64,000 nt of DNA from an uncultured Rickettsiales bacterium (GTDB lineage Bacteria > Myxococcota_A > UBA796 > UBA9615): positions 3,488-67,487 of the forward strand of contig CAYQEG010000010.1 in the NCBI GenBank assembly GCA_964416435.1, in the 5' to 3' direction. The stretch's first letter is position 1. Each line of letters opens with the position of its first letter. Shown here piece by piece: positions 5,727-63,504 of the stretch. Under the pieces are notes generated by a model. It did not search any database. It was not told the origin of the DNA and saw only the letters and a list, made by a program, of their open reading frames with translations. A program made the position numbers and the translations under genes.

Positions 5727-5753
5727 CGGCGGCGGGGCGGATCGAGCGCGCGG

Positions 5754-6404
5754 TCAGCGCGTCGTGGTCTCGTTCTGGATCCAGACGGGGGCGACGCCGT
5801 CGTCCGATGGGAAGATCAAGAAGCTGTAGGCGTTGCCACGCTCCAGCTGCAGACCGGCGATCGGCGCCGACGCGCCGCCGGCGCCGAAGGCCGCGAGGTC
5901 GACCTTGATCCCGTTGACCTCCCGGCTGCCGACCCCCCGCCGGCCGACGCCTTCGATCAGCGCCACCGAGCCGTCCGCCGTCTTGAGGTCCCACGTGCCG
6001 TCGTCGGCGAGGTTGTAGAAGACCACCAGCGCCTTCGCCCGGGAGGACAGGGTGGGATCGCTCAGCAGCGCCGGCTCACCCGCCGCGGTCAGCGCGACGG
6101 TGTAGAAGCCGCCCGCCTTCAGCTCGAAGGATGCCTTGGCGGATCCGGCGACGAGGTCGCGGGTTCCCTCGGCGACCACCCGGTACAGCGTCGAGGTGCG
6201 CGGCGCCACCGAGCCGAAGTCCCGGTCCCCCAGGGTCACGCCCACCGGCACCGCGCCGGCGTTGACCACGCGCACGAACGCGCTGCCCTCGGGCGGCTCG
6301 GGGTCGTACAGCGTGTCCTGGGCCGTCCCCGCCGCGGGCACGAGCAACAGGGAGCAGAGAAGGCCCATCAGGGCGCAGCGACGGGTCAACTGGGCGTGGT
6401 GCAT
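5754..6404 (-). CDS. algF: Alginate O-acetylation periplasmic protein AlgF homolog
   Basis: 216 aa with signal peptide; LYDPEPPEGSAFVRVVNAG, KALVVFYNL...LKTADG and PVWIQ align to P. aeruginosa AlgF (LYGPQAPKGSAFVRAYNAG, KALVRVQNL...LKTADG, PVWV). Confidence 0.75.
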   Translation of the reverse strand: MHHAQLTRRCALMGLLCSLLLVPAAGTAQDTLYDPEPPEGSAFVRVVNAGAVPVGVTLGDRDFGSVAPRTSTLYRVVAEGTRDLVAGSAKASFELKAGGFYTVALTAAGEPALLSDPTLSSRAKALVVFYNLADDGTWDLKTADGSVALIEGVGRRGVGSREVNGIKVDLAAFGAGGASAPIAGLQLERGNAYSFLIFPSDDGVAPVWIQNETTTR

Positions 6405-6446
6405 AGGAGGGTAGGACCGTGCGTGAGTCGAAGCAGGTGCCCCGGA

Positions 6447-8090: not shown

Positions 8091-8215
8091 CGTCCTCCCG
8101 AACGCATGGGTATCCCCACCGACACCCTGCCCCGAAGCCTAGTGGATTGGCAAGTTGTGGAACGTCTCAGAGAGTCTCGATGTGCCCGAACTCGCTGGGG
8201 AAAGCGGTGAACGGC

Positions 8216-10345
8216 TCAATACGGGCTCGGCAGGACGTAGGTCCGCCCCGCCTCCGCGAGGGGTGACCAGCGCCCCCACGCTCCGATCACCAGGTCGTCC
8301 AGGCCGTCGCCGTCGATGTCCCCGCCCCGGCACAGCGTGCCGCCGACCGTGTCGCCCGCCTCCTCGCCGACGAACGCCGCGTCGGCGAGGCCGACGGAGA
8401 CCGGCCCGTCGAGCGACGAGAGCGACGAGCCGAGGAACAGGAAGGTCTTGCCGGCGAACTCGCCCCCCTCGGCGTCGCCGAAGGCGCCGATCAGCACGTC
8501 GTCCAGGCCGTCCCCGTCCACGTCTCCGGCCGACGCGACGCTGCCGCCGACCCGCTGGATGTCGGCCGTCGCGGTGAAGGTGATCGCGGCGCCGGCGAGC
8601 GTAGCGCCACCGGCGACCAGGTCCGAGCCGAGCACCAGGTAGGCCTCGCCGCCGGCCTCCTGGGTGCCGTCGGCGAACCAGGCGCCGATCAGCAGGTCGC
8701 CCCGTCCGTCACCGTCGACATCCCCCGCCGACGCGAGCTTGCGGCCCGCCTGGTTGTCGGCGGCGAGGCCGTGGAGCGTCACGTCGGCCGAGGCGAGCGG
8801 GATCGTGCCTCCGCCGACCGCCGACGACGAGAAGATGACGTAGGTGGCCCCGGCCTCGAAGGCCGTGACGCTGGCCCCCTTGCTCCCCACCACGATCTCC
8901 GCCCCGCCGTCGCCCTCGACGTCCGGGATCAGGTCCACCCACCAGCCGGCGAGGTCGAACGCGGCGACCCCCGGCATCTGGACGTCCGCGTCCCCCAGCC
9001 AGACGACCCCGCTGGCGGGCACCGACGACGCGAAGACGAGGTACGCCTTGCCGGCGTCGCCGGAGGTGTCGTTGTTGCCGTAGCCGCCGAAGAGCAGGTC
9101 GTCGCGCCCGTCGCCGTCCACGTCCTCGCCGCCCCGGAACGCCCAGCCGGTCCAGTCGAACGCCCACTCGCCCTGGAAGATCACGTCCGCGTCGCTCGCG
9201 ATCAGCGTGCCCCCTGCCGCCAGGGACGCTCCATAGAAGAGGTACGTCGCCCCCGTCTCCTGGTCCCAGGTGTCCGCGGTGTAGGACCCCACGAGCACGT
9301 CGTCGAGGCCGTCCCCGTCCACGTCGCCCGCGGGCGCCACCGACCAGCCGAGGTAGTCGTAGGGGGCGTCGCCGACGATCGTGGCGTGGGCCGACGTGGC
9401 GAGGCCCAGGTCGCCGCCGTCGGCCAGCGCCGAGCCGAGCACCAGCCACGCCTCGCCCGACGCCTGCCCGTTGGCGTCGCTCCAGTTGGCCCCGACGAAC
9501 ACGTCGTCCAGGCCGTCCCCGTCCACATCCCCGACGCCGCAGGCGCCCATCCCGCTGTGGTCGAACTCGTCGTGGCCGTCCAGCCAGGTCGGCGCGACGC
9601 TCAGGTCGAGGGCGTCGCTGCCGTCGCAGTTGCTGTCGACCCCGTCGGTGGGGTCCTCCCAGCCGGGCCGGCCGGGGTAGACGTCGGCCCGCTCGTCGTC
9701 GCAGTCCCCCTCGCAGGGGACGACGCTGTCCCCGTCGGAGTCGACCTCGAACTCCGCGAGCTCGCCGTCGCAGTTGTCGTCGAAGCCGTTGCAGATCTCT
9801 TCGGCGTCGGGGTGGATCTCGGCGACCGCGTCGTTGCAGTCCCCCAGACAGGGCCACAGGCCGTCCCCGTCCAGGTCCTGCTCGTTGCTCGGCACGTAGG
9901 CGTCGCAGTCGTCGTCGACGCCGTTGCACTCCTCGGGGCGGCCGGAGTAGCGGAGCGGGTCGGCGTCGTCACAGTCCCCCGCGCAGCCGGGCTGCCCGTC
10001 CCCATCACCGTCCAGCTCGCCGGGGTCGGGGGCCCCGTCACAGTCCGTGTCGATCGCGTCGCAGCCCTCGTCGGCGCCCGGGTGGACCGCGGAGGCGCCG
10101 TCGTCGCAGTCAGGGCCGCCGCTCGCGTCGCTCGCGAAGCCGTCCCCGTCGTTGTCCTGGCCGTCGACGCCGTCGCAGTCCTGGTCGATGTCATCGCCGA
10201 ACGGATCGAGAGCGAATCCCCGCTCGGGGTCATCCGGGGCGCAGTCGAGGTGGTCGGGGACCCCGTCCCCGTCGAAGTCGGCGAGGCCGCCGGGGCCACA
10301 CCCCCACGACAAGACCAACACGAACGCTGCGCCCAGACCCCTCAC
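8216..10345 (-). CDS. Lipoprotein with tandem Cys-rich myxobacterial-type putative metal-binding repeats (DCDD...CNG.DDDCDG) followed by FG-GAP integrin-alpha repeats
   Basis: Lipobox LSWGC; repeated CxDDDxDxxxPxxxExCNGxDDDCDG units; multiple GDVDGDGLDD FG-GAP motifs. Confidence 0.7.
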   Translation of the reverse strand: MRGLGAAFVLVLSWGCGPGGLADFDGDGVPDHLDCAPDDPERGFALDPFGDDIDQDCDGVDGQDNDGDGFASDASGGPDCDDGASAVHPGADEGCDAIDTDCDGAPDPGELDGDGDGQPGCAGDCDDADPLRYSGRPEECNGVDDDCDAYVPSNEQDLDGDGLWPCLGDCNDAVAEIHPDAEEICNGFDDNCDGELAEFEVDSDGDSVVPCEGDCDDERADVYPGRPGWEDPTDGVDSNCDGSDALDLSVAPTWLDGHDEFDHSGMGACGVGDVDGDGLDDVFVGANWSDANGQASGEAWLVLGSALADGGDLGLATSAHATIVGDAPYDYLGWSVAPAGDVDGDGLDDVLVGSYTADTWDQETGATYLFYGASLAAGGTLIASDADVIFQGEWAFDWTGWAFRGGEDVDGDGRDDLLFGGYGNNDTSGDAGKAYLVFASSVPASGVVWLGDADVQMPGVAAFDLAGWWVDLIPDVEGDGGAEIVVGSKGASVTAFEAGATYVIFSSSAVGGGTIPLASADVTLHGLAADNQAGRKLASAGDVDGDGRGDLLIGAWFADGTQEAGGEAYLVLGSDLVAGGATLAGAAITFTATADIQRVGGSVASAGDVDGDGLDDVLIGAFGDAEGGEFAGKTFLFLGSSLSSLDGPVSVGLADAAFVGEEAGDTVGGTLCRGGDIDGDGLDDLVIGAWGRWSPLAEAGRTYVLPSPY

Positions 10346-10395
10346 CTGACGATCCTACCCATCCCCACCTCGGAGCGAGTTAGATTGCGCGTCCC

Positions 10396-30010: not shown

Positions 30011-32293
30011 GTGCCAACCATGGCCCGGCTCCTGCTGCTTCTGTCCCTCCTGGCGGCCCTCGCGCTGAGCGGCTGCGACCAGGAATGCATCGCCAACTGT
30101 CCCGAAGTCGACGACGACGACTCCGGCGACGATGACGACGTCGCCGACGACGATGACGCGGCGGACGACGACGACACCACCCCACCCATCGACGAGCCGG
30201 ACCCGGAGATCGTCACGGTCCGCGACTGCACCCCGGTGCTCGCGTACCGCCCCGACTGGACCCCCGGCTCGGTCGACGTGGCCGGCGAGTGGAACGCCTG
30301 GGTCGCGGAGCCGATGACCGGCCCCGACGAGGACGGCACCTGGACGATCGAGCTGCCGGCGTTGGACCCGGGCGAGTACGCCTACAAGCACCTGCACAAC
30401 GGCGAGTGGGAGGGGGATCCGCCCCCCTGGGCGTACGCCAAGTGGCTCGACGGCAACGAGAACCGCAACCTGCGGGTGGGCGACTGCAGCCGGCCGCTGC
30501 TGCAGACGGTCGACGCGTCGGCGACGGCCGCCGGCGCCCTGCGGGCGACCGTGCAGATCGCCCTCGCGGAGGACGAGGCGTCCGTCGTCGCGGACGACAT
30601 CCTGGTTCTCGTCGGGGGCGTCGCGGCGCCCGTCGACTTCGACCCCGCGACCGGCCTGCTGAACATCGAGGTCGACGGCCTGGATCCCGGCAAGCACTCG
30701 GTCCTCGTCTACGCGAGCGACGAGGAGGGACGCACGGCCGAGAACGAGCCCCTCTGGATCCCGCTGTGGGTCGAGGACGAAGCGTTCACCTGGGAGGACG
30801 CGCTCATCTACTTCGCGTTCGTCGACCGCTTCCGCAACGGCGACTTCGGCGAAGATCCGTTGTTCGGCCCCGTGCCGGACACGCCGACGGCGGCCAACTA
30901 CCAGGGAGGCGACTTCCTGGGCGTGCTCCAGGCGCTGGAGGAGGGCTGGTTCGAGCAGCTCGGCGTCAACGTGATCTGGCTGACGCCGGTCTACGAGAAC
31001 CCGGACGACCCCTACATCGCGGTCGACGGCATCCACAACTTCAGCGGCTTCCACGGGTACTGGCCCATCGACCCGCTCGCCACCGAGTCCCGCTCCGGGG
31101 ACGTCTGGGTGGACAGCGAGGAGCGGCTCCACGAGCTGATCGAGGCGGCCCACGCGCGCGGCGTGCGCGTCATGTTCGACCTGGTGCTCAACCACGTGCA
31201 CGAGGACCACGTCTACGTGAACGAACACCCCGAGTGGTTCGGCGGCGGCTGCGTCTGCGGCTCCGACGGCTGCGGCTGGGAGGAGCGCGCGCTCGACTGC
31301 TGGTTCACCAGCTACCTGCCCGACCTCGACTACCGCAACCACTGGGTCACCGAGCGCGTGCTCGACGACACCATCGAGCTGATCCGCCGGTACGACGTCG
31401 ACGCGGTGCGGGTGGACGCCGCCAAGCACATGGACCATGTGGTGATGCGGTCGCTGTCGCGGCGGCTGCGGGACGAGTTCGAGGTGGGCGGCGGCGCCGA
31501 GTTCTACCTGGTGGGCGAGACGTTCACCGGCGGGGACGGCCACGGCACGATCATGGACTACGTCAACCCGTGGGAGCTCGACGGCCAGTTCGACTTCCCC
31601 CTGTACTGGACGATCCGCAGCACGTTCGCCCACGACGCTTCGTTCTTCGAGTTGGACGGCGCGGTCTCCACCGGCGAGGCCCAGTACGGCGACGGGCTGA
31701 TGTCACCCTTCGCGGGCAACCACGACATCGCCCGTCTCGCCACCGAGATCGCCGGCAACGACGGCGGCGCGTGGGGCTTCACCGAGGACTGGATGGCGGG
31801 CGGCGGCGACGAGGTCACCCAGTGGGACCTGATCACGCGGCAGTCGATGGCGCTGGCGTTCACGCTGACCCAGCCGGGCGCGCCGCTGCTGTACTACGGC
31901 GACGAGATCGGGCTGGCCGGCAGCGGCGACCCGGACAACCGTCGGTTCATGACCTTCGAGCCGTACCTGTCCGCCAACCAGAGCGAGCTGCTGGGCCGGG
32001 TGCGGAACATCGGGCGAGCGCGCGCCGAGAGCCGGGCCATCCGGCGGGGCGAGCGGCGCACCCTGTGGGTCGACGACGAGCTGTACGTGTACGCGCTGGA
32101 GGCCGGTGACGACGTCGCGATCGTGGCCCTGCACAAGGGCTGGTCGGAGCGCACCGAGACGATCCCGCTGGGCCGGAGCGACCTCGGCGAGTCGCTGGAC
32201 GACGCCGCCTTCGGCCGCAGCTTCTCGGTGGACGGCAGCGACCTGAGCCTGACCCTCGGCTCCTGGGACTACGCGATCCTGATCGCCGACTGA
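30011..32293 (+). CDS. GH13 alpha-amylase-family lipoprotein with poly-Asp linker and starch-binding-like N-domain
   Basis: Lipobox LALSGC; DDDDSGDDDDVADDDDAADDDD; GH13 regions GYWP, GVRVMFDLVLNHV, DAVRVDAAKHM, YLVGE, FAGNHD. Confidence 0.8.
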   Translation: MPTMARLLLLLSLLAALALSGCDQECIANCPEVDDDDSGDDDDVADDDDAADDDDTTPPIDEPDPEIVTVRDCTPVLAYRPDWTPGSVDVAGEWNAWVAEPMTGPDEDGTWTIELPALDPGEYAYKHLHNGEWEGDPPPWAYAKWLDGNENRNLRVGDCSRPLLQTVDASATAAGALRATVQIALAEDEASVVADDILVLVGGVAAPVDFDPATGLLNIEVDGLDPGKHSVLVYASDEEGRTAENEPLWIPLWVEDEAFTWEDALIYFAFVDRFRNGDFGEDPLFGPVPDTPTAANYQGGDFLGVLQALEEGWFEQLGVNVIWLTPVYENPDDPYIAVDGIHNFSGFHGYWPIDPLATESRSGDVWVDSEERLHELIEAAHARGVRVMFDLVLNHVHEDHVYVNEHPEWFGGGCVCGSDGCGWEERALDCWFTSYLPDLDYRNHWVTERVLDDTIELIRRYDVDAVRVDAAKHMDHVVMRSLSRRLRDEFEVGGGAEFYLVGETFTGGDGHGTIMDYVNPWELDGQFDFPLYWTIRSTFAHDASFFELDGAVSTGEAQYGDGLMSPFAGNHDIARLATEIAGNDGGAWGFTEDWMAGGGDEVTQWDLITRQSMALAFTLTQPGAPLLYYGDEIGLAGSGDPDNRRFMTFEPYLSANQSELLGRVRNIGRARAESRAIRRGERRTLWVDDELYVYALEAGDDVAIVALHKGWSERTETIPLGRSDLGESLDDAAFGRSFSVDGSDLSLTLGSWDYAILIAD

Positions 32294-40492: not shown

Positions 40493-41850
40493 CAGGCTCC
40501 TTCGTCGTCGGCCGCCGCGGCAGCGGGGGCGACGGGTTCGTCGTCGGCGAGCTCTCGCACCGACAGCAGGGTCGCCTGGACGCCCAGGAGCGCCGCGGCG
40601 TGGTCGAGCAGATCGATCTCGCCGGTCTCGCCCAGCTCCTTGATCCGCGACATCGGGTGATGCAGGTACCGCTTGGCGATCGCGCCGGCCATGCGCTCCA
40701 GGGCGACCGCGATCTGCTCCTGGGCGTCGCCGGGCAGGCCGTCGAGCACCGGGCGCAGCCCCGCCAGCGTGCGCTCCGCCTCCTGGTGGCCCTCCCGGGC
40801 GACCCGCTGGCCCACCGCGCGGAGCAGCGGGGCGACGTGCACGCGGGCGAGCACCCGCCCGAACGCGTCGGTCTCTTCCTTGACGAGCCCCTCGGCGAGG
40901 GACGCTTCCCGCTGACGCGCCTCCCGGCCGGACTCGACCACCCGCCCCAGATCGTCGATGTCGAACAGGTAGACGGAGTCGAGATCGTTGATCGCCGGGT
41001 CGAGGTTCCGCGGCACCGAGATGTCGATCAGGAGCAGCGGCCGACCCTTGCGCGCGCGCCGCACGCTCTTGACGTCGGCCCGGTTCAGGATCGGCTCCCG
41101 AGCGCCGGTCGAGGCGACGACGATGTCCGCCTTCTTGAGGAACTCGACGCGGCGGCTCCAGGGGAGCACCGACGCGTTGAGGGGGCCCGCCACGTCGGCG
41201 GCCCGCGACATCGTGCGGTTGGCGACGTACAGGTCCCGGCAGCCCCGATCGGAGAAGCCCCTCAGCGCCAACTCCGCCATCTCCCCCGCGCCCAGCAGCA
41301 GGACCGGGTGGCGGTGGAGGTCCTCGAACACGGCCCCCGCCATGTCGACAGCGGCCCGCGCGACCGACAGCGTGGAGGCCCCGATGTCGGTCTCGGTCCG
41401 GACCCGCTTGGCGACGGCGAAGCCCTTGTGGAGCAGTCGATGGAGCACCGGCCCCACCGTGCCGACCTCCGCCGCCACGCGGTACGCCTCCTTGACCTGG
41501 CCGAGGATCTGGGACTCGCCGAGCACCATCGAGTCGAGCGAAGAGCAGACGCGGAAGAGGTGCTGCACCGCCTCGGCGTCGTCGTAGGCGTACAGGTGCT
41601 CGTCGAGGCGGGCGGACGGCAGCCCCGACCAGTCGGAGATCGCCGCCTCGACGATGCCCGGCTCGGCTCGGACCTGGACCGTGAGGACCTCGACGCGGTT
41701 GCACGTCGACACGAGCACGACCTCCCGGATGCCGGGCTGGGCGTGCAGCTCCTGCATCACGGCGGTCATCCGATCGTCCGGCAGCGACAGGCGTTCTCGG
41801 ACTTCGACCGGCGCGACCTTGTAGCTGGTCCCGACGAGCTTGAGCCTCAT
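40492..41850 (-). CDS. hemA: Glutamyl-tRNA reductase
   Basis: MRLKLVGTSYKVAPVEVRE start; GAGEMAELAL NADPH-binding region; ATGA overlap with upstream hemX-like gene. Confidence 0.85.
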   Translation of the reverse strand: MRLKLVGTSYKVAPVEVRERLSLPDDRMTAVMQELHAQPGIREVVLVSTCNRVEVLTVQVRAEPGIVEAAISDWSGLPSARLDEHLYAYDDAEAVQHLFRVCSSLDSMVLGESQILGQVKEAYRVAAEVGTVGPVLHRLLHKGFAVAKRVRTETDIGASTLSVARAAVDMAGAVFEDLHRHPVLLLGAGEMAELALRGFSDRGCRDLYVANRTMSRAADVAGPLNASVLPWSRRVEFLKKADIVVASTGAREPILNRADVKSVRRARKGRPLLLIDISVPRNLDPAINDLDSVYLFDIDDLGRVVESGREARQREASLAEGLVKEETDAFGRVLARVHVAPLLRAVGQRVAREGHQEAERTLAGLRPVLDGLPGDAQEQIAVALERMAGAIAKRYLHHPMSRIKELGETGEIDLLDHAAALLGVQATLLSVRELADDEPVAPAAAAADDEGA

Positions 41851-42689
41851 GCGTGCGCGACTCCAACGACGGAGGCGATGACCCCCGCGAAGCCCACGAT
41901 GGCGATCCAGGCGGCCTTCCGCCCGCCCCATCCCAGGAGCGAGCGCGCCTGCCACGCCAGGGCATACAGCAGCCACAACCCGAGGGTCACCACGACCTTC
42001 GGCCGGAGGTTCACGCCCTCCGCTGCACCATGAATAGCCCACAGGGTGCCCGTGAGAATGCCCATCGTCAGGAACGCGAGCCCCAGCGCGAAGCTCTTGC
42101 GGTTGAGCGAGTCGAGCACCTCGAGGGACGGCATCCGCAGCCCCGCGTCGGTGGACGGCAGGGGGAGCTTCTTCTTCTTCAGCCGGTTGCTCTGGATGAG
42201 GTAGAGCACCCCGCAGCCGAAGGCGAGGGCGAAGAAGCTGAGGCTGGAGTAGTTGGAGAGCGAGTGGAACGGCAGCCAGGTCGACGCCAACTGCTCGGGC
42301 AGGAACGCGGCCGGGTCCTCACCGATCAGCATGCCGCCCAGCGCCAACCCCATCGACACCGGCGCGAGGAACGCGCCGAGCACGCGGACCTTCTCCCGGG
42401 TCAGCCCGGCGACGACCGCAGCGGACGCGGCGAGCCAGGCGATGGTCGCCAACGGGTGGTCCCAGGCGCCGCCGCTCTCCCCGCTGAACGCCCCCAGGGG
42501 CATCCGCCCGAAGTGCGCGACGTGAAGGATCGCGACGACGGTGTGAGCCACCGCGGCGACCAGCAGGACGTAGAAGCCCGCGCGGACCGCGCTCGCCCGA
42601 CCCATGGTCAGGCCGAGGGCGTAGACGACGGTGCTCGCGCCGTAGCCGACCAGCGCGACGAGGAAGAGGACCGCCGCGACGGTGGTCAT
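41847..42689 (-). CDS. CcsA/HemX-like cytochrome c assembly-family membrane protein upstream of hemA
   Basis: 8-TM protein with Trp-rich WAxxxWG-like region; position equivalent to hemX in hemAXCD operons. Confidence 0.55.
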   Translation of the reverse strand: MTTVAAVLFLVALVGYGASTVVYALGLTMGRASAVRAGFYVLLVAAVAHTVVAILHVAHFGRMPLGAFSGESGGAWDHPLATIAWLAASAAVVAGLTREKVRVLGAFLAPVSMGLALGGMLIGEDPAAFLPEQLASTWLPFHSLSNYSSLSFFALAFGCGVLYLIQSNRLKKKKLPLPSTDAGLRMPSLEVLDSLNRKSFALGLAFLTMGILTGTLWAIHGAAEGVNLRPKVVVTLGLWLLYALAWQARSLLGWGGRKAAWIAIVGFAGVIASVVGVAHA

Positions 42690-44704
42690 CTACGTCCCCG
42701 AAGGCGTGAGAAGAGGCCGCCCTTCTTGGGCTCTTCGGCGGCTTCGGCGTCCTCGCCGTCGAGGGGGGGGACGGCGTCGGGCACGCCCTGGCCGCGTCGG
42801 TCCATGAGCCTCAGCTCGCGTGTCGCCTCGACGTGCTCGGGATCGGCCTTGAGCGTGCGCACGAAGTACTTCCGGGCCCCGACGAACTCCTCCTGCAGGA
42901 ACGCGAGGCGGCCGAGGTAGTACCACGCATCGGCGTAGCCTTCGTCCTTGCGGACGATCTTCGACATCTCCGCCATCGCCTGGCGGGGGTTCTCGGGGTC
43001 CAGCCGGAAGCGAGCCCACGCCAACTGCGTCTGCGCGTCGAGGTTGTCCGGGTCGTGGAGCGTCGCGTCCTTGAAGTCCTGCGCCGCGTCGGCGTAGCGC
43101 TTGTGGCGCAGCCGGATGCGTCCCCGGGCCATCGCGACCTTGCCCATCTCCATGTCCGTGGAGTCGAGGTCACCCTCGAGCTGGCCCAGGTACTCCGCGC
43201 GGCGAGGCGGGTCGCGCAGGACGTCGTAGGCGTCCTGGATCCTGGCGAACACCGCGTTGGCGGTCTCCTGCACGCGCGGATGCAGGCCGTACAGCTTGTC
43301 GGGGTGGTACTTGAGCGAACGGGTCCGGAGCGCTTCGCGGATCTTCTTGTCGTCCGCGTCTCGCTTCAGCCCGAGCACCTGGTAGTGGTCCGCGGTCCCG
43401 AGGCGGTGAAGCTCGGTCACGAGCTCGGTGAGCCGCTTGCCGGTGTCGGCGCCCCACGGCCTCCCCGAGAAGTGCAGGAAGCCGATCCGGCGGAGCAGCT
43501 CGACCAGGGCGTGCACGTGGTGGGTTCGAGCGTCGTCGTCCCCCGCGCAGACCCGGACGAGCTGGGCGAGGGTGATCTCGCGGCCCCGGGCCTTCATCAG
43601 CTGGGCCAGCACCTCCTGCTCGACGCCGGACAGCGCCCACGAGCGGATGGTGGCGTCGCTCGGCAACCGGACGACGACCACCGCGTCGGGATCGACGTCC
43701 AGCAGCTCGCGCCCCTCGGCCTCCGAGGCGACCGCCCGGATGAGGAGCGGGATGACGGGCGTGGGGTCGCCGAAGTGGTCCTCGGGGGCGAGGCCGGGGA
43801 TCGCGCGGAGCTCGCCGTCCCAGGCGTCGAGGGCCCTCGAGATCAGGGCGACGGCGGCCTGCTGCTCCAGCCAGCCGGTCTCGTGCATGCCGATCCCGCG
43901 CAGCGCCATCAGCAGCTGGGCCTCCTCCTGGATGTTCTGGAGCGGGACCTCGGGCACGTGCACGCCGTCCAGGCGCCCGTGGGCCGCGGCCGCCGCGACG
44001 AGGTCCCTCCCGGCGGCGGAGCGAGCGAAGGTCAGCTGGCCCAGCTCGAAGTACAGGGCGAGGTCGTCCGCGTCCTCCTGGGCGATCTCGAGGCACCCGG
44101 TCCAGTCGCTCCGGTCGATCCCGCACAGCTGCCTGGCCATCTCGACCTTGGCGAGCGGGCGGGTCCCCGTCGGCGCGTCGACCCGGAGCTCGGCGGCGCT
44201 CTCGGCGGCGAGATCCGCCACCACCTGGACCGCTGCGGCGCGGTCGTCGGGCGGCGCGAGCAAGGTGACCAGCCGAACGAGCTCGCCGGGATCCAGGGGG
44301 GCGACCATCACCGCGCCGAGGTTGAGCTCGACCGGCGCGAGCTCCTTGAGCGCCTCCGGCTTGTGGTAGCTGGACCACGCGATGACCGGCACCGGCGCGG
44401 CGAAGTGGCGGTACTCGTCCCGGATCAGGTCGAGCCCGCTGCCCGACTGCATGTCCGCCGAGATCATCACCAGGTCGGGGTTCCGGGCCCGGATCTCCAG
44501 CTTGAGGCGCTCGGCGTCCACGAGCCGCACGATCTCGTAGCCGAGCATGCCGAGGACCGACTCGACCACGCGGGCGGTTCGATCGTTCGACTCGATGAGC
44601 AGGAGGGTCGGCACGGAGGCCGGGAGGATAGCAGCCAGCCCTGCGCTTGCTCCCCCCAACGTCGGTGTGGTTCGAGGGCTTGACCCGGCCCGGACCGGCA
44701 CCAT
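42686..44704 (-). CDS. Fusion protein: N-terminal response-regulator receiver + central domain + J-domain (DnaJ-like) + TPR repeats
   Basis: Receiver PTLLLIESNDRTARVVESVL...LVMISADMQ; J-domain HYQVLGLKRDADDKKIREALRTRSLKYHPDK; TPR-like C-terminus; start taken at ATG 44704; ATGA overlap with hemX-like start. Confidence 0.6.
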   Translation of the reverse strand: MVPVRAGSSPRTTPTLGGASAGLAAILPASVPTLLLIESNDRTARVVESVLGMLGYEIVRLVDAERLKLEIRARNPDLVMISADMQSGSGLDLIRDEYRHFAAPVPVIAWSSYHKPEALKELAPVELNLGAVMVAPLDPGELVRLVTLLAPPDDRAAAVQVVADLAAESAAELRVDAPTGTRPLAKVEMARQLCGIDRSDWTGCLEIAQEDADDLALYFELGQLTFARSAAGRDLVAAAAAHGRLDGVHVPEVPLQNIQEEAQLLMALRGIGMHETGWLEQQAAVALISRALDAWDGELRAIPGLAPEDHFGDPTPVIPLLIRAVASEAEGRELLDVDPDAVVVVRLPSDATIRSWALSGVEQEVLAQLMKARGREITLAQLVRVCAGDDDARTHHVHALVELLRRIGFLHFSGRPWGADTGKRLTELVTELHRLGTADHYQVLGLKRDADDKKIREALRTRSLKYHPDKLYGLHPRVQETANAVFARIQDAYDVLRDPPRRAEYLGQLEGDLDSTDMEMGKVAMARGRIRLRHKRYADAAQDFKDATLHDPDNLDAQTQLAWARFRLDPENPRQAMAEMSKIVRKDEGYADAWYYLGRLAFLQEEFVGARKYFVRTLKADPEHVEATRELRLMDRRGQGVPDAVPPLDGEDAEAAEEPKKGGLFSRLRGRR

Positions 44705-50261: not shown

Positions 50262-52016
50262 GTGACGCAAGACCAGGAGGAGCGGCTCGTTGCCGCCCCG
50301 ATCGCCTGCTCCCGCCACGGACGACCACCGACGCCGTCGGAGTCGTGCATGCATCGAGACCGCCGACACCCAGCCCCCGCCTCCCCCCGGGTAGCTCAGC
50401 GCCCGCACCTGCCGCGGGTGCTCGTCATCGCGCCCGACGGCCACGAACGGGCGGAGCTCGTCGCCCGCCTGTCGGAGCTGGCGTTCGAGCCGTGGCCGAC
50501 CGACTCGGGCGCCGCGGCGATCCCGCTCCTGAACCAAGGCCGCTACTTCGCCGCGCTCTGCGACCTCCACATGCCGGACCTCGGCTGCTTCGGCGTCCTG
50601 CGGGAGCTCGCGCGGCTGCGGCTGGAGACGCCGGTGGTCGCGCTGACCGATGAGCCCACCGTCGGCGAGGTGATCGCGCTGTTGCGCAAGGGGGTCGGCG
50701 ACGTGCTCGTCCGGCCCGTGAGCGTCGACGCCCTCTCGGCCTGCCTCGACCGGCTCCGAGACGCGACCGAGCCGCAGGTCCAGGTGCCGCGAGACGCGCC
50801 GTCCTGCCCCTGGAACCTGGGCGCGGTGCTGAGCGATCCCCCGCCTGCGTTCACGATCTCCGGGTCCTCGCTGTCCGGGCCGATGCCCGCTCCCATCGCG
50901 CCGACCCGCGCCCGAGCAACGCCGCCGGCTGGCGCGGCGGCGCCGGCGCGTCCACCGGCGGTGAAGGAGATCCCCAGGCCTCGACCGGCGGACAAGGCGC
51001 GCGCGGCCGCCCCTCCCGAGCCTGCACGACCCAGGCGCAAGGCCCGTCGGACCAGGGCCCACCCCCCCGAGCCGAAGCAGCAGCGCGAAGAGCCCGCAGC
51101 GGCGCGACGGACGCCTCGCTCGGTCACCCCCGGCCCGGCCGCCCCCGCCGAGGCCCGCAAGCTGGCCAAGGAGGCCGTCCGCGAGCTCAAGCAAGGCCTG
51201 GAAGACGGCAGCTTCAGCCTGCCGGCCATCGGCCCCCTCGCGCCCGAGATCCAGCGGCTGCTGAACCAGCCGACCTGCGGGGCCGGCGACGTCTTCAACG
51301 TCGTGCACCGCGATCCGGCCATCGCCTCGACCGTGCTGCGGACTACCAACAGCGGCATGTACGGCGGCCAGGCGACGATCACCGACCTCAAGGCCGGCTG
51401 CCTCCGCCTCGGCAACCGACGCGTGCTCGCGATCGCCCAGGAGGTCCTGATCAGGTCGATCTTCGAGTTCCAGGCCGGCCCCCTCCAGGCCGTGATCGAG
51501 GACATGTGGCGCAACGTGATCGTATGCGCCCGCGGCGCCCACAAGCTGTCCGCGAAAGTAGGGGTCGGTGATCCCAACCAGGTCGAGGTCGCAGCGATGT
51601 TCCACAACCTCGGGGAGATCGTCTTGCTCCGGCTCGGTCGGGAGCTCGGGCTCCAGCTCGTCGGCGGAGAGCTGCCCACCGAGTACCTGGCGGTCATCGA
51701 GGCGAGCCACGAGCGGCTGGGGGCCGAGCTGCTCAAGTCCTGGGCGATGCCCAACGACCTGATCCAACTCGCCGGCTCGCACCACTCCGCCCCCCGGCGC
51801 CCCGAGTCCCGCGACGCCACCAGCCTGCGCATGCTCGTCCGGGCGGCGTGGGTCGGCGCCTGCCGCGCCGGCTACACCTACCTCCCCGACCAGGACGACG
51901 AGGACGGGGGAGCTGCGCTGAAGCACCTGGGCCTGGGGCTGGACGAGCTGGACGAGATCTTCGAGGCCGCCGAGACCTGGTTGAAGCCCGCCGGGGACGC
52001 CGACAGGAGTTCCTAG
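50262..52016 (+). CDS. HDOD-domain signalling protein with N-terminal receiver-like domain and Pro/Ala-rich linker (true start may be the internal ATG near 50349)
   Basis: Receiver-like VLVIAPDG...LCDLHMPD; HDOD region GSFSLPAIGPLAPEIQRLL...MFHNLGEIVLL. Confidence 0.6.
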   Translation: MTQDQEERLVAAPIACSRHGRPPTPSESCMHRDRRHPAPASPRVAQRPHLPRVLVIAPDGHERAELVARLSELAFEPWPTDSGAAAIPLLNQGRYFAALCDLHMPDLGCFGVLRELARLRLETPVVALTDEPTVGEVIALLRKGVGDVLVRPVSVDALSACLDRLRDATEPQVQVPRDAPSCPWNLGAVLSDPPPAFTISGSSLSGPMPAPIAPTRARATPPAGAAAPARPPAVKEIPRPRPADKARAAAPPEPARPRRKARRTRAHPPEPKQQREEPAAARRTPRSVTPGPAAPAEARKLAKEAVRELKQGLEDGSFSLPAIGPLAPEIQRLLNQPTCGAGDVFNVVHRDPAIASTVLRTTNSGMYGGQATITDLKAGCLRLGNRRVLAIAQEVLIRSIFEFQAGPLQAVIEDMWRNVIVCARGAHKLSAKVGVGDPNQVEVAAMFHNLGEIVLLRLGRELGLQLVGGELPTEYLAVIEASHERLGAELLKSWAMPNDLIQLAGSHHSAPRRPESRDATSLRMLVRAAWVGACRAGYTYLPDQDDEDGGAALKHLGLGLDELDEIFEAAETWLKPAGDADRSS

Positions 52017-52194: not shown

Positions 52195-52797
52195 TCATCG
52201 GCGGCCCAGGCCGACGTGGAAGATCTCCCGGCTCACGCGGCGCGTGCCCTCGGGCTTGATCGTGCGGACCTTGGAGAAGGCCGCCTGGATCCGCTTGCGG
52301 AGGGCCGGCTCGTCCTCCCCCTGGAACACCTTGCAGACGAAGTGGCCGCCCGGCTCGAGCCAGCGGACGGCCAGCTCCAGGGCCCGGTCGCACAGCTCCA
52401 CGGACGCGACGTGATCGGCCAACTGCACCCCCGTGGTGTTGGGGGCCATGTCCGACAGGACCACGTCGAACGGCGGGACGTCCTCCGGGAGCGCTTCTTC
52501 GTCCAGGGTGAACGCGTCCGCCTTCAACACGGTCGCGCCGGGCAGGCTGACGCCGATGTCCTGCAGGTCGACCGCGACGAGCACCCCCCGATCACCGATC
52601 TTCCGCATGGCGTACTGGCTCCAGGATCCCGGGCAGGCGCCCAGGTCGAGCACCTTGTCGCCCCGACGGAGCAGCCGGACGCGGCGGTCGATCTCCTCCA
52701 ACTTGAAGACGCTGCGCGCGGCGAAGCCGGCCTCGCGGGCCGCCTTGCTCCGGTGCTCCTCGCCCGTGTAGTCGGGCTTGCGGCGGCGGCGCGCCAT
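52195..52797 (-). CDS. rlmE: 23S rRNA (uridine-2'-O)-methyltransferase RlmE/FtsJ
   Basis: VLDLGACPGSWSQYA SAM-binding motif; 200 aa from internal Met MARRRRKPDY; the track ORF (to 53346) is over-extended. Confidence 0.8.
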   Translation of the reverse strand: MARRRRKPDYTGEEHRSKAAREAGFAARSVFKLEEIDRRVRLLRRGDKVLDLGACPGSWSQYAMRKIGDRGVLVAVDLQDIGVSLPGATVLKADAFTLDEEALPEDVPPFDVVLSDMAPNTTGVQLADHVASVELCDRALELAVRWLEPGGHFVCKVFQGEDEPALRKRIQAAFSKVRTIKPEGTRRVSREIFHVGLGRR

Positions 52798-53390
52798 CAG
52801 GGCGTCCCCGCGGTCGCCTCGAGGATCCGGGACCACAGCTCGCCGCGCCCCGTCCGGTCGACGCTGCTGAACAGGAGGCTGGCCTCCCGCTCGACGCCCA
52901 GCCCCTTGCAGATCAGGCTGTGGCGGTGGAGCCGCTTGGACTTGGCGATGCGGTCGACCTTCGTGAGCACCAGCAGCCCCAGCCGCTCGGTTTCCTCGAG
53001 CCAGTCGAGCATGCGGTCGTCCAGGTCCGTCGGGTCCCGGCGCATGTCGACCAGCACGACCACCAGCCTCAGCGACTCCCGGCTCGCCAGGTACTCGCCG
53101 ATCATCTTGTCCCAGGTCCGCTTCACCTTGAGGGGCACCTTGGCGAAGCCGTAGCCCGGCAGGTCGGCGAACCGTAGATCGCGGCCGCTGTGTCGGACGT
53201 CGAAGAAGTTGATCGCCTGGGTGCGCCCCGGGGTCTTGCTCACCCGCGCCGCCCCGTGCCGCCCCACCAGCGTGTTCAGGCAGGAGCTCTTGCCGACGTT
53301 GCTGCGCCCCACGAACGCCACCTCCGGGCGATCGTCGTCGGGCCATTGCTTGCGCGCGAAGGCCGACAGCAGGAAGCGGACGTCGGTCAT
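52797..53390 (-). CDS. engB: Ribosome biogenesis GTP-binding protein EngB/YihA
   Basis: VAFVGRSNVGKSSCLN G1 motif, DLPGYG, LTKVD; ATGA overlap with upstream cytochrome gene. Confidence 0.8.
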   Translation of the reverse strand: MTDVRFLLSAFARKQWPDDDRPEVAFVGRSNVGKSSCLNTLVGRHGAARVSKTPGRTQAINFFDVRHSGRDLRFADLPGYGFAKVPLKVKRTWDKMIGEYLASRESLRLVVVLVDMRRDPTDLDDRMLDWLEETERLGLLVLTKVDRIAKSKRLHRHSLICKGLGVEREASLLFSSVDRTGRGELWSRILEATAGTP

Positions 53391-54613
53391 CGGTTCAGGG
53401 GCGCGAGCACCGGGTCGCCGGGCAGGTGGCACCGCAGGCAGACGGTCCCCTCCCCCTGGCCGAAGCGCCAGGTGCCGACGTCCTCGGCCCAGGCGTCCGG
53501 ATGGGGGCTGACGAGCGCGCCGTGGCACTCCAGGCAGAGCGACTCCCCCTCTCCGCCGTGGCACGCGACGCAGGTCTCGAGCGAGCGCCGCGCCTGGAAG
53601 CTGTGGTGCTCGCCCGTCGGGATGGTGCCGGGCTCGCCCCGCCAGCCGTTGGGGTGGAACGTCAGGTCGCCGGGGTTGTCGAGGTTCTCGGGGCTTGGGA
53701 AGCCCGACGGAGTGACCCCCGCTTCGGCGTGGCAGGACCGGCAGTCCGCCTCGACCTCGTGGCAGGCGAGGCAGTCCAGCGTGCGACGCTGGGCTTCCAG
53801 GCCGTGGGTGTTCTTCCAGTCGGCGGGGTGCAGCCCGATCGGCTCCTGCAGGCCGTCGTGGCAGTCCAGGCAGCTGTCCGCGTCGTGGCACGCGCCGCAG
53901 GACGCCTCGTCGGTCCGCGCGGCGGCCCGGTGGACTTCCAGCCAGCGGCCCTGGTCGTGGTCGTCGGGGCGGAACTGGCCCGACGGACGCAGCCTCCCCC
54001 GGGAGTCCAGCATCGTCAGGAGCCGGCCGCCGTCGCCCTGCAGGTGGCAGGTCGTGCACTCGGACGGGGCGGCCCCTCCGGTGTGACAGTCCAGGCAGGT
54101 CCGCATGGTCGGCAGGTGCTGTCGCGTCGCCAGGTCCGCGCTGTCGACGCCGACGTGGCACTCCAGGCACGGGGTCCCGAGGTCGACGTGGAGCTTGTGA
54201 CTGAACGTGATGCGGGCCGGCGGGATGTCGATCCGTTCGGGCTGGGGAGCGGTCGGCAGCGGCTGCCCCATCGGGTCCACGTCCGCGTGCGTGCCCCCGT
54301 CGATCGCGGTGTGGCACGCCCCGCAGCCCGCCTTGGGGTAGCGCTCGACCGCGTCGGGCGCCTGGGTGAGGTGGCAGATGTTGCACTGGGGGTGACCCGG
54401 CACGAGCGAGTCCCGCGCGTCGGTGCTCGTCGTGGCCGCGACGTGGCAGACCTGGCACTGGAGGCCGAGCTCCAGGTGCTTGCTGTGGCTGAACGTGATC
54501 GGGAGGTGCTGCTCGGGGTAGACCAGCGTGGAGCGCGGATCGCCCACCGGCGACCTGGCCACCGCGGTCGCGGTGAGCAGCAGCAGCGCGGCGACCAGCA
54601 GCGCGCGCTTCAT
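53387..54613 (-). CDS. Periplasmic multiheme c-type cytochrome (13 CXXCH motifs)
   Basis: Signal peptide MKRALLVAALLLLTATAVA; CQVCH, CNICH, CGACH, CLECH, CLDCH, CTTCH, CGACH, CLDCH, CLACH, CRSCH, CVACH, CLECH, CLRCH. Confidence 0.85.
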   Translation of the reverse strand: MKRALLVAALLLLTATAVARSPVGDPRSTLVYPEQHLPITFSHSKHLELGLQCQVCHVAATTSTDARDSLVPGHPQCNICHLTQAPDAVERYPKAGCGACHTAIDGGTHADVDPMGQPLPTAPQPERIDIPPARITFSHKLHVDLGTPCLECHVGVDSADLATRQHLPTMRTCLDCHTGGAAPSECTTCHLQGDGGRLLTMLDSRGRLRPSGQFRPDDHDQGRWLEVHRAAARTDEASCGACHDADSCLDCHDGLQEPIGLHPADWKNTHGLEAQRRTLDCLACHEVEADCRSCHAEAGVTPSGFPSPENLDNPGDLTFHPNGWRGEPGTIPTGEHHSFQARRSLETCVACHGGEGESLCLECHGALVSPHPDAWAEDVGTWRFGQGEGTVCLRCHLPGDPVLAPLNR

Positions 54614-56115
54614 CGCTCACCCCCCAGGCCCACGCCGCCGCCCAGCCCGGGCAGCGTCTCCCGCCCCGACGCCGCGCCGCCGACGAGGCGGGCGGGCTGG
54701 AACGCGTCGACCCGGGCCTCTTCGCGGGCCGCGGGGCCGAGGTGCTTGATGCCCAGGAGCAGGTCGAGCGTCGCCGAGATGCGCCAGTCGTTCTTCAACC
54801 AGGGAGAGAAGATCGTCTCCCCCCGCGCGCCGACCCGGAGCCACGGCAGCGGCCGCACCGCCCCGTCGACCACGAGCCCTCCGTACAGCCCCTGGAGGTT
54901 GGGCTGGATGGTGAAGTCGTAGGACTGCAGGTCTCCGCGGACGCCGAGCTCGATCCGCCCGTCCAGGGGCGTGACGCGGCCCGACAGGCCGACGCCGAAC
55001 TTGCGGCCGCCGGTGCCGTCGACGAGCCGCTGGTCCACTGAGAAGCGGAGGAAGTCGAGGGGACGCACCGTGACTCCGGCGCGCTGGGTGCCCGACAGGC
55101 GGCCGACCTCGTCCCGGGGCACGTCGTCCTTGGTCGCCGGGATGGGCAGGATCTGCAGGCCGCCGCCGACGTGCACCGACAGGACCTGGCCGACGCGCAG
55201 GTCGGCGTCGCCCCGGATCGCGTCGTAGGGGTCGGTGTTGAAGACGGAGAACAGCTCCGTCGAGTCGAACGTCGGCTGCCAGTGCTCGTACTCGACGCCC
55301 GCGCGCAGCCAGCCCGTCGGCTTCACGTCGACGCCGGCGAGCGCCTCGCTGATCCGGCGCTGGAGCAGGTCGACGGCCAGGTTGCCCCGCACGTTGACGA
55401 CGCCGAGGATCCCCTTGTGCACGTCGATCGTGAGGTTCCGGCGGGCGAGTTGACCGTCCCGGAATCGATCGACGAAGCCGATCCGGACCTGGGTCGTCGG
55501 CAGCCCCGAGGTCGCCAGGGAGACCCCCCACGTCCAGTCCCGGCCCCAGCCGGTCTCGTGGGTCTCCCGCTGTTCCTTCGGCACGACGAAGGCCCGGCTC
55601 CGCAGCGAGATCCCGGCGAAGGTCTCGATCTGCAGGCGATGCAGCGTCATCGACGCCCGCAGCCCGTCGATGCGGGTCAACCCGTGGGTCCCGCCGGTGG
55701 CGAGGATCTGGCGCCCCAGTCGGGCCGACACCCAGCGCCCCTCCGGGGCCACGTCGACGAAGGCGTAGAGCACCTCGCCGGTGAAGCCACCGCGGTAGAG
55801 GTCCGCCCCGCCCCGCACGGACGTCTCGAAGGAGACCCGATGCCGGCTCCGGTCGTCCCGGACGACGAACGAGAAGGCCTGGGTGAGGGGGCTGAAGGGG
55901 ACGACGCGATCGGTGCTGCTGCGCAGCGATCGCCAGCGGTAGACGGTCCGCGAGCGCCCCCAGAGGTAGATCCCCTGGCCGCTCCCCTTGAGGTAGTCGC
56001 CGTCGTCGACCTCGCCCCAGCCGGTCGCCAGCACGCCGCCGGAGCCGGCCTCCGCCGGGGGCGGGGCGATCAGGACCCCGAACACGATCGAGGCCGCCAG
56101 GAGGCGCAGTCGCAT
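54610..56115 (-). CDS. Predicted outer-membrane beta-barrel protein (porin-like), 501 aa
   Basis: Signal peptide MRLRLLAASIVFGVLIAPPPAEA; alternating amphipathic beta-strand pattern rich in G/R/Y/W; coupled (overlapping) to both flanking cytochrome genes; the track ORF (to 56820) is over-extended. Confidence 0.45.
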   Translation of the reverse strand: MRLRLLAASIVFGVLIAPPPAEAGSGGVLATGWGEVDDGDYLKGSGQGIYLWGRSRTVYRWRSLRSSTDRVVPFSPLTQAFSFVVRDDRSRHRVSFETSVRGGADLYRGGFTGEVLYAFVDVAPEGRWVSARLGRQILATGGTHGLTRIDGLRASMTLHRLQIETFAGISLRSRAFVVPKEQRETHETGWGRDWTWGVSLATSGLPTTQVRIGFVDRFRDGQLARRNLTIDVHKGILGVVNVRGNLAVDLLQRRISEALAGVDVKPTGWLRAGVEYEHWQPTFDSTELFSVFNTDPYDAIRGDADLRVGQVLSVHVGGGLQILPIPATKDDVPRDEVGRLSGTQRAGVTVRPLDFLRFSVDQRLVDGTGGRKFGVGLSGRVTPLDGRIELGVRGDLQSYDFTIQPNLQGLYGGLVVDGAVRPLPWLRVGARGETIFSPWLKNDWRISATLDLLLGIKHLGPAAREEARVDAFQPARLVGGAASGRETLPGLGGGVGLGGER

Positions 56116-56678
56116 CAGTTGTCCAGCGCCCCCTGGAGGATCCAGGACCAGATGAGCGACTTCTGCTCGTCCGACAGCGGCACCGCGCCGGCGAAGTTCT
56201 CCGGCGGCATCGGCCCCTGGAAGTAGCCCCAGTCGGGGTTCATGTTGTGACAGCCCAGCACCTTGCGGAACAGGTACGACTGCTGGGGATCTCCCGCGGT
56301 CACCCGTGGCATGCCGTCGCCCTCGCCGTACAGGAGCGAGTTGGGCACATCCACCAACTCGGCCCAGGACTGGCCGGGGGACAGCGTCAACTGACCCTGC
56401 TTCTGGAAGACGTGGCACTTCTGGCAGTGGTCGAAGAACATCGGCTCGATGTCGTCCCCGAGGGAGACCTCCGGCCGCTCCTCGAGGAAGTCCGTGTCGC
56501 AGATCAGGACCGCGGAGTCGTCGTCGTCCGGCGCCGAGTCGTCGTCGTCGTCGTCGGTCGTGTCGTCGTCGTCGACCACCACCGCCAGGGCGTAGGGCTC
56601 GTTGTCCGTGACCGTCGGACAGCCCGCGGCGAGGGCCACGAGCAGGACGATCAGCAAGAGCGCTCGGGCCGTGGTCAT
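56115..56678 (-). CDS. Mono-heme cytochrome c lipoprotein with poly-Asp linker
   Basis: Lipobox LAAGCP; DDDDTTDDDDDDSAPDDDDS; single CQKCH heme motif. Confidence 0.6.
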   Translation of the reverse strand: MTTARALLLIVLLVALAAGCPTVTDNEPYALAVVVDDDDTTDDDDDDSAPDDDDSAVLICDTDFLEERPEVSLGDDIEPMFFDHCQKCHVFQKQGQLTLSPGQSWAELVDVPNSLLYGEGDGMPRVTAGDPQQSYLFRKVLGCHNMNPDWGYFQGPMPPENFAGAVPLSDEQKSLIWSWILQGALDN

Positions 56679-56818
56679 CGCGGCATAGTGGCAGATCGAG
56701 GGTGCGCCTTCCAGCCACCGTGGCAGCCGCGCGCCGGTGTGTGCATCCTGGGGGGGTGAGCGACGCGCTGACCAGCCTGAGCGGCACCCTCGGCCGATCC
56801 GAGCCCGGCATCAGCACC

Positions 56819-59079: not shown

Positions 59080-63504
<4,425 letters not shown>

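Follow-up and report, generated by a model that had tools for sequence, protein, structure and literature searches.

A beta-barrel and 13-haem cytochrome gene pair with the architecture of a porin-cytochrome conduit in marine Myxococcota

Do three overlapping genes, in the genome of an uncultured bacterium, encode a route for electrons across the outer membrane? The genes lie in a 64,000-nucleotide stretch of contig CAYQEG010000010.1 (assembly GCA_964416435.1), deposited as a Rickettsiales bacterium and hereafter called the window. All are on the minus strand. They encode a 187-amino-acid (aa) lipoprotein with one haem motif (56115-56678), a 501-aa exported protein (54610-56115), and a 408-aa cytochrome with 13 haem motifs (53387-54613). 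The original prediction described these as a coupled module, resembling known porin-cytochrome systems, in which the 501-aa protein is an outer-membrane barrel. Our open reading frame (ORF) map and direct translation bear out the gene structure. The lipoprotein and barrel genes share a TGATG junction, with a 1-nt overlap at 56115, and the barrel and cytochrome genes share ATGA at 54610-54613. On balance, we think that the barrel and the 13-haem cytochrome are a conduit of the porin-cytochrome (Pcc) type, belonging to a new sequence family.

The barrel, the cytochrome and their pairing

The 501-aa protein has a signal peptide, ending in PPPAEA before GSGG, and no CXXCH motif. It matches nothing in Pfam or NCBIfam (E≤0.1). 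Similarly, a profile of 32 homologues found nothing among sequences in the Protein Data Bank (PDB). An AlphaFold2 (AF2) model, built on the 32-homologue alignment, has a pLDDT of 76.5 and a pTM of 0.69, with most strands at 85-96. In the model, 22 long antiparallel strands span residues 49-458, and about 25 mature residues come before the first. There is no plug domain. Three further properties were considered. First, the dyad hydrophobicity of the strands is 2.94, compared to 1.42±0.22 in 500 shuffles (maximum 2.09). Second, lumen-facing positions are strongly polar. Third, loops of at least 6 aa (8, 21, 17, 17, 7, and 6) are all on one side, except for one 6-aa turn, while turns on the opposite side have 2-6 residues. 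This is the classical topology of outer-membrane proteins. The model, dyad pattern and loop sidedness agree with the original prediction, and point to a transmembrane beta-barrel of about 22 strands rather than a soluble beta-sandwich or helical protein. In a fold search, the best matches were transporters, ushers, and porins.

Two parts of the barrel protein stand out. The Gly-rich C-terminal tail (residues 459-501; 54613-54741, minus strand) is disordered in the model. It is nevertheless conserved, and an AGLxGGIGLGG end takes the place of the terminal aromatic beta-signal. The tail may be a plug, or a point of contact with a partner. In addition, conservation in two long loops, at residues 280-296 and 323-339, exceeds that of the strands. 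The first, putatively on the extracellular side, scores 0.76, compared to 0.66 for the strands, and includes the most conserved motif of the protein, FDSTELFSVFNTDPYD (residues 283-298; 55222..55269, minus strand), with consensus FDxxELFSVFxTDPYD. Here, F283, S290, V291, F292, D295, P296, and D298 are invariant. Such conservation is unusual for surface loops and suggests that both loops contact a partner.

The cytochrome has a Sec signal peptide, no lipobox and, as originally counted, exactly 13 CXXCH motifs. All 13 are conserved in 11 orthologues drawn from related loci, and are invariant in an 81-sequence alignment reaching down to 32% identity. This alignment also contains nine invariant, and two near-invariant, additional histidines. 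Hence, there are enough for mostly bis-His ligation. Two N-terminal trihaem units, resembling cytochrome c7 and ActA, are followed by a 7-haem C-terminal part (Pfam Cytochrome_C7, 2.7e-18). The AF2 model has a pLDDT of 81, exceeding 90 over residues 30-200. When the cytochrome profile was compared with PDB sequences, the pentahaem ActA subunit of Alternative Complex III (ACIII) scored best (3e-17). High-molecular-weight cytochromes (HMC), c7/PpcA, and an MtrC domain were next. MtrA (6r2q_A) reached an E value of 2.3e-4, without any significant stretch, and did not appear in fold searches of the cytochrome model.

We then turn to the distribution of the genes. At first retrieval, the barrel family was small, comprising 36 proteins from marine metagenomes. 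Scanning the GTDB species representatives gave ten loci. Each is in one of the marine metagenome-assembled genomes (MAGs) deposited as 'Rickettsiales', 'Deltaproteobacteria UBA6601/RS363' or 'Proteobacteria'. The nearest named relatives of the cytochrome are labelled Myxococcota. Across 16 related loci, with protein identities of 42-72%, the three genes are kept, together with the 13 CXXCH motifs, the lipobox, the poly-Asp tract and the gene overlaps. Hence, the module is not a product of chance. Wherever the contig reaches, all 16 loci also have the same gene order: a metallophosphoesterase gene, then lipoprotein, barrel, cytochrome, engB and rlmE, and then pepA. Note that, because the backbone of this marine lineage is wholly collinear, synteny within it says little about function.

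Outside the marine lineage, we looked up six distant loci. These are L017 (Haliangium ochraceum; CP001804 4928598-4931731), L018 (a Kofleriaceae MAG), L019 (a 3.3-Mb contig), L021 (a 1.8-Mb contig), and L020 and L022, which are 16-haem versions of a Gemmatimonadaceae type. Distant homologues of the 13-haem cytochrome are 33-38% identical over their full length. In all six loci, the gene directly upstream of the cytochrome gene overlaps it, by 1 or 4 nt, and encodes a 440-585-aa protein that has a signal peptide and matches nothing in Pfam. The remaining neighbours are all different, with neither engB nor rlmE present. Three of the six upstream proteins are matched by the barrel hidden Markov model (HMM): those of L021 (2e-15), L019 (1e-11), and Haliangium (7e-11). 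The L019 protein also aligns with the barrel at 95% in hhalign, over 382 columns, and the conserved loop motif is present in both the Haliangium and L019 proteins. Since the pair is kept in six unrelated contexts, barrel and cytochrome make up a self-contained module. From these comparisons, it is autonomous, ancient and composed of two genes.

An exhaustive profile search found 313 cluster representatives at E≤1e-3, including 59 at E≤1e-10. Ten remote representatives were scanned, and their barrel parts belong to no Pfam or NCBIfam family. One metagenomic protein, P0258 (869 aa), at face value a natural fusion of barrel and cytochrome, was rejected as a frameshift or gene-call artefact. Briefly, an Arg-rich, out-of-frame stretch at about residues 395-500 is followed by a signal peptide and 13 CXXCH motifs. 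Since this is a merger of adjacent genes, it counts only as a further instance of adjacency. In clusters of the Gemmatimonadaceae type, cytochromes with 17-18 haems and lipoprotein cytochromes with 3 and 8 haems are both encoded just upstream of the pair. This is the canonical layout of a full Pcc cluster.

The monohaem lipoprotein and the direction of electron flow

The third protein of the module begins with MTTARALLLIVLLVALAAGC, a signal peptide and lipobox in which LAAG precedes C20. This cysteine is invariant in 16 sequences, and the motif predicts lipidation. An acidic tether of about 40 aa separates the lipid anchor from the haem domain. It includes the poly-Asp tract VDDDDTTDDDDDDSAPDDDD (residues 35-54; 56517..56576, minus strand), and repeated DDDD blocks occur in 16 of 16 family members. 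The sole haem motif, CQKCH, is at residues 85-89 (56412..56426, minus strand). Hence the poly-Asp linker and single haem motif of the original prediction are borne out. Besides C20, the residues invariant in the 16 homologues are C85, C88 and H89 of the haem motif, M157-P158, W179, and G183-A184. A C-terminal W-I-x-Q-G-A is also common to all 16.

The lipoprotein in the window has no Pfam match at E≤0.1, does not reach the gathering threshold of Pfam PSCyt1, and belongs to no NCBIfam family. Individual relatives match Cytochrom_C, Cytochrome_CBB3, PSCyt1, and PccH weakly; for PSCyt1, this applies to 2 of the 16, with a best E value of 0.0028. The best PDB match of the family profile is FoxE, which is marginal (E 6.4e-4 overall, with a domain i-E of 0.64). 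The alignment covers HCxxCH, GDPEAS (GDPxxS), MPP, and WIxQGA. With its CXXCH motif, distal Met in MPP, and C-terminal WIxxGA helix, the C-terminal domain reads as a class-I monohaem cytochrome c, of a FoxE/PSCyt1-like kind. The haem is probably ligated by His and Met.

The same type of tether is found elsewhere in the window. An alpha-amylase-family lipoprotein (30020-32293, plus strand; Pfam Alpha-amylase, 6e-29) has the same DDDD-block linker, LALSGCDQECIANCPEVDDDDSGDDDDVADDDDA, directly past its lipobox. Hence, the tether is a lineage-wide linker, not specific to the cytochrome, and acidic poly-Asp linkers look like the general style of lipoprotein tether in this lineage. For this reason, we downgraded a metal-binding role specific to the poly-Asp tract.

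Nor does the lipoprotein always accompany the pair. It is not beside the pair in Haliangium or L019. In L021, a lipoprotein encoded two genes downstream of the pair (7851-8927, plus strand) is matched by the monohaem-lipoprotein HMM at 1e-5. Its N-terminal part is Ig-like, and is combined with the same CxxCH…MPP…WIQAGA monohaem domain. Judged by these loci, the monohaem lipoprotein is a recurrent yet optional accessory. Other lipoproteins also occur next to distant pairs. In L019, a 161-aa lipoprotein with a Big_5 domain and no haem is encoded after the pair (9112-9597, plus strand), and small non-haem lipoproteins are encoded downstream in L020 and L022.

How might the three proteins work together? 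Logically, a wide barrel of 22 strands, with short loops and no plug, would leak unless a partner fills the pore. This, the constant pairing of the barrel with a 13-haem cytochrome, and the fit to the numbers and architecture of Pcc systems are the grounds for reading the pair as a conduit. Set in the outer membrane, the barrel would serve as an insulating sheath. The cytochrome, exported by Sec, would sit partly inside, with a closely packed chain of bis-His haems carrying electrons between periplasm and cell surface. The lipoprotein, anchored to the outer membrane on its acidic tether, would dock on one end of this wire, and its His/Met class-I haem would be a dedicated single-electron partner. 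It is probably a shuttle on the periplasmic side; the alternative is surface display. A cytochrome c maturation gene of the CcsA type, also within the window, counts in favour of a conduit.

We lean towards uptake of electrons from outside over metal reduction, or at least towards a connection with an aerobic chain of high potential. In uptake, oxidation of Fe(II), Mn(II), or reduced organic matter would supply the aerobic chain. Four points favour this. First, the accessory partner has only one haem, of class I and with a conserved Met ligand. Second, among solved structures, FoxE is most closely related to its haem domain. Third, MtoD, of the Fe(II)-oxidising Mto pathway, is a precedent for a class-I monohaem cytochrome encoded with a porin-cytochrome pair (PMC4412085). 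Finally, carriers are pelagic or aerobic Myxococcota, and the operon has no extracellular multihaem reductase. Note that the conduit may be reversible.

Several observations weigh against a conduit. Both the barrel and the cytochrome families are known from sequence alone. The pore could be blocked by the conserved Gly-rich tail or loops rather than filled by the cytochrome. In fold, the barrel is closer to barrels of TonB receptors than to MtrB, which strand number alone explains. The upstream proteins of L018, L020, and L022 share only marginal, motif-level similarity with the barrel, and synteny in the collinear marine lineage is weak evidence by itself. Nearby genes encode neither a quinol oxidoreductase of the inner membrane nor an extracellular cytochrome with multiple haems. 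The poly-Asp tether is generic in this genome. Finally, carriers include obligate aerobes without known extracellular electron transfer.

The strongest rival has the opposite direction of electron flow. The original prediction had envisaged an Anaeromyxobacter-like metal reducer. Here, the conduit would point outwards, for dissimilatory metal reduction in an anaerobe of this sort, and the monohaem lipoprotein would be the terminal reductase at the surface. The architecture is the same as for uptake, two-gene Pcc clusters with 12-14 haems do exist in Anaeromyxobacter (PMC4245776), and porin-cytochrome conduits are, in principle, reversible. A tether of some 40 residues could also reach through, or around, the barrel. 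Such a host is not supported. The lineage is made up of MAGs of pelagic marine origin. Among named taxa, the nearest relatives are in Haliangium, Kofleriaceae, and Nannocystaceae, and the 120 cytochrome matches listed (of 200) include no protein from Anaeromyxobacter or Geobacter. Neither the operon nor the window encodes an extracellular multihaem reductase or a quinol dehydrogenase cytochrome. Furthermore, a single His/Met class-I haem would be an unusual terminal metal reductase, and both FoxE (the closest solved relative) and MtoD (the closest functional analogue) belong to oxidising pathways. Nothing in the sequence indicates electron flow towards metals. We consider outward metal reduction unlikely, and have set aside the Anaeromyxobacter-like host.

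A second possibility is that the barrel has no role in electron transfer. It could be an ordinary solute channel or export pore, possibly plugged, in the manner of LptDE, by the lipoprotein or else by its own tail. The cytochromes would then share only an operon with it. As periplasmic redox proteins, they might detoxify, store electrons, or form a reductase chain in the periplasm. Pairs of a lipoprotein and a barrel are common elsewhere. In keeping with such a pore, the barrel matches no known family of electron conduits, its best fold matches are to transporters, ushers, and porins, and the conserved tail and loops could be a gate. Set against this, genes for the barrel and a 13-16-haem cytochrome stay adjacent, and overlapping, across Myxococcota and Gemmatimonadota. 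If the two proteins formed no physical or functional complex, it would be hard to see why their genes stay together when all other neighbours are replaced. The lipoprotein, not being beside the pair in Haliangium and L019, is not an obligatory plug. There is also no transporter, TonB-box, or plug signature. Hence, we regard a plain pore as quite improbable.

Descent from an inner-membrane respiratory complex like ACIII, as a fragment or derivative, is effectively refuted: although ACIII contains a monohaem lipoprotein cytochrome (ActE), and ActA chains top both the sequence and the Foldseek matches of the cytochrome, the likeness is confined to c7-like units (about 130 residues, TM below 0.25), the signal peptide of the cytochrome is cleavable and its haems number 13 rather than 5, no ActB, ActC, ActD, or ActF gene is present in the window or any related locus, and the gene flanked by the two cytochrome genes encodes a beta-barrel, a fold incompatible with the inner membrane.

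Returning to the Pcc-type conduit, a bolder account can be given of its history. Here, the pair would belong to an unrecognised conduit family with an ancestral core, an unplugged 22-strand barrel and a 13-haem cytochrome, widespread in mostly aerobic Myxococcota and with 16-haem versions in Gemmatimonadota. The pelagic marine lineage would have recruited the tethered, FoxE-like, His/Met monohaem lipoprotein as an oxidising head, and so gained an extracellular uptake route. This head would oxidise Fe(II)/Mn(II) or organic matter, or sense surfaces. Taken together, as one joint reading, this is possible but doubtful. If true, free-living bacteria of the oxic ocean, and predatory myxobacteria, would take up electrons by a route missed by markers for Mtr, Mto, Pio, Cyc2, and Geobacter Pcc systems.

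To find extracellular electron transfer, surveys depend on HMMs for MtrB/PioB, Cyc2, and Geobacter proteins. Since the barrel family, with its 313 representatives, has no Pfam or NCBIfam model, it is invisible to such surveys, as is its 13-haem partner. If the conduit works, both pelagic Myxococcota of the sea and aerobic myxobacteria in culture would come within the range of extracellular redox chemistry. It would also be a compact system for structural and synthetic-biology work, with 22 strands, 13 haems and a tethered monohaem partner. Haliangium ochraceum DSM 14365, a cultured aerobe, carries the core pair and is a tractable test organism. Hence, the idea is directly testable.

Neighbouring genes and other features of the window

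Downstream of the cytochrome gene, also on the minus strand, are engB (52797..53390; NCBIfam TIGR03598, 1.7e-61), for a ribosome-biogenesis GTPase of the YihA/YsxC type, and rlmE (52195..52797; Pfam FtsJ, 7.5e-48), for an FtsJ 23S rRNA methyltransferase. The cytochrome and engB genes share ATGA at 53387-53390, and engB and rlmE share TGATG, overlapping by 1 nt at 52797. Hence, the five genes from lipoprotein to rlmE, the last, make a single overlapping string. From the ATGA junction, engB is predicted to be coupled translationally to the cytochrome gene and is probably co-transcribed with it. Even so, we do not count engB among the functional parts of the barrel-cytochrome module. The original prediction had remarked on the unusual linkage of the module to engB and rlmE with a 4-nt overlap. 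The linkage is real, and present in every marine-lineage locus that is long enough. It is missing from all six distant loci and, since the two genes are absent wherever else the pair occurs, gives no clue to function. We conclude that it is a lineage-specific accident of operon structure. One detail needs correcting: the 4-nt overlap is between the cytochrome gene and engB, and engB and rlmE share only 1 nt.

On its upstream side, the string ends at the metallophosphoesterase gene, which is divergent. On its downstream side is a response-regulator/HDOD gene (50262-52016), which is convergent. According to the ORF map, the divergent intergenic region, between the lipoprotein and metallophosphoesterase genes, is 56679..56818, and we presume that it holds the promoter of the five-gene string. 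A scan for promoters and terminators found no sigma-70-like consensus, but such a scan is uninformative in a genome of 72% GC. In the L001/L002 sub-lineage, the slot of the response-regulator/HDOD gene is taken by an extra lipoprotein gene (11893-13179 in L001, minus strand; same position in L002), between rlmE and pepA. The product in L001 has 428 aa, five CXXCH motifs, a weak match to Cytochrome_C554 and a faint match to an MtrC domain.

The CcsA-type cytochrome c assembly gene (Cytochrom_C_asm, 2.6e-20) and a gene for a neighbouring DnaJ-TPR protein are at 41847-42689 and 42686-44398, respectively, both on the minus strand. Such a pair is also near the module in related loci L003 and L005.

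Other parts of the window encode further unusual proteins. The gene at 59080-63504 (plus strand) encodes 1474 aa, with N-terminal PAS-like regions and a very long, repetitive segment rich in Ala, Glu, and Lys (AEAAKADAEAAR-type repeats). A strong AT skew (up to 0.62) and a GC content of 0.76-0.78 coincide with it, at about 60-61.5 kb. In related loci, the orthologous PAS proteins are 818-1261 aa long. A 712-aa protein, encoded at 8216-10354 (minus strand), has four MopE-type putative Cu-binding motifs, six FG-GAP repeats, and a lipobox-like N-terminus. Finally, an AlgF-like alginate O-acetylation protein is encoded at 5754-6407 (minus strand; Pfam AlgF, 7e-35). The adjoining ORF, at 4308-5753 (minus strand), has a hydrophobic N-terminus in its product. 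This hints at a cluster for polysaccharide O-acetylation at 4308-6407.

Comparison with known systems

As defined by Shi, Fredrickson & Zachara (2014), a Pcc system combines a porin-like protein of 18-22 strands with a periplasmic cytochrome of 5-14 haems (PMC4245776). Examples are OmbB-OmaB-OmcB of Geobacter, the two-gene clusters of Anaeromyxobacter and Ca. Kuenenia, and IALB_1838/1839 of Ignavibacterium. The clusters of Anaeromyxobacter and Ca. Kuenenia lack an outer-membrane cytochrome and have larger periplasmic proteins, with 12-14 haems and 338-400 aa, which the authors propose to span the membrane alone (PMC4245776). The module is within the published range, having about 22 strands, 13 haems and a 408-aa cytochrome. 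The cytochrome gene is adjacent to that of the barrel, and its product has a signal peptide without a lipobox, as expected for a periplasmic multihaem protein. Hence, the likeness to porin-cytochrome systems in the original prediction holds, both by this published architecture (PMC4245776) and because the barrel is locked to a multihaem cytochrome in many contexts. There are also differences. The outer-membrane multihaem cytochrome, an optional part of Pcc systems, is lacking, and the lipoprotein has one class-I haem instead of many bis-His haems. The gene order is lipoprotein, barrel, cytochrome, the barrel matches no curated family model, and the genes occur in MAGs of pelagic marine bacteria and in aerobic Myxococcota.

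The module resembles MtoAB-MtoD and PioAB-PioC, since a barrel and a multihaem wire are encoded with a small, higher-potential carrier of single electrons, and without an extracellular multihaem cytochrome. MtoD, of the Sideroxydans lithotrophicus Mto pathway, is an 11-kDa class-I monohaem cytochrome with a potential of +155 mV (PMC4412085). In contrast to our lipoprotein, which is predicted to be lipid-anchored and has the conserved MPP methionine, MtoD is soluble, with bis-His ligation. MtoB and PioB are barrels of the MtrB family, with 26-28 strands, while MtoA and PioA are decahaem proteins of the MtrA family; the module matches neither family. Specifically, the barrel has no match to MtrB_PioB (Pfam) or TIGR03509 at E≤0.1, nor to any MtrB in the PDB at E≤10. 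With about 22 strands rather than 26-28, and 13 haems rather than ten, membership of MtrAB/MtoAB/PioAB was rejected. Compared to Shewanella MtrCAB (6r2q), with 26 strands, 10 haems, and the decahaem MtrC, the module has about 22, 13, and a monohaem lipoprotein. The difference from Mtr and Pio systems noted in the original prediction thus stands, MtrA being matched at 2.3e-4 only.

The lipoprotein domain aligns with the second haem domain of FoxE, a dihaem putative Fe(II) oxidase of Rhodobacter ferrooxidans SW2 (PDB 5mab). FoxE is soluble and encoded in foxEYZ, which has neither a barrel nor a multihaem partner. Cyc2, like the module, combines a single c-type haem with an outer-membrane barrel. 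The Cyc2 barrel is small, with about 16 strands. Cyc2 is also a single polypeptide, and has no multihaem partner, whereas the module has a separate gene for the haem lipoprotein, a barrel of about 22 strands, and a 13-haem cytochrome. We rejected membership of the Cyc2 family, as the barrel protein has no CXXCH and the haem protein is encoded separately. We also rejected a TonB-dependent transporter. There is no Pfam match to Plug or TonB_dep_Rec, only about 25 mature residues precede strand 1, and the likeness is to the barrel wall only. The marine 'Ptd' porin-cytochrome operon was also compared, since MAGs of this lineage often carry the label Rickettsiales. Its composition is different, with a pentahaem protein containing a beta-sandwich, an FAD oxidoreductase and a ferric-reductase-like protein (bioRxiv 10.1101/2023.11.21.568154). 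The 16- and 26-haem operon of SEEP-SRB1 is unrelated (PMC5539420).

In literature on Haliangium, or Myxococcota, with porin-cytochrome systems, we found no description of the module. That Pcc systems are highly diverse is already known. What appears to be new, as far as sequence comparison can tell, is a barrel family without a curated model, a distinct 13-haem architecture and a FoxE-like monohaem partner. We conclude that the module satisfies the Pcc architectural class, and is set beside OmbB/OmaB by published description, not by sequence.

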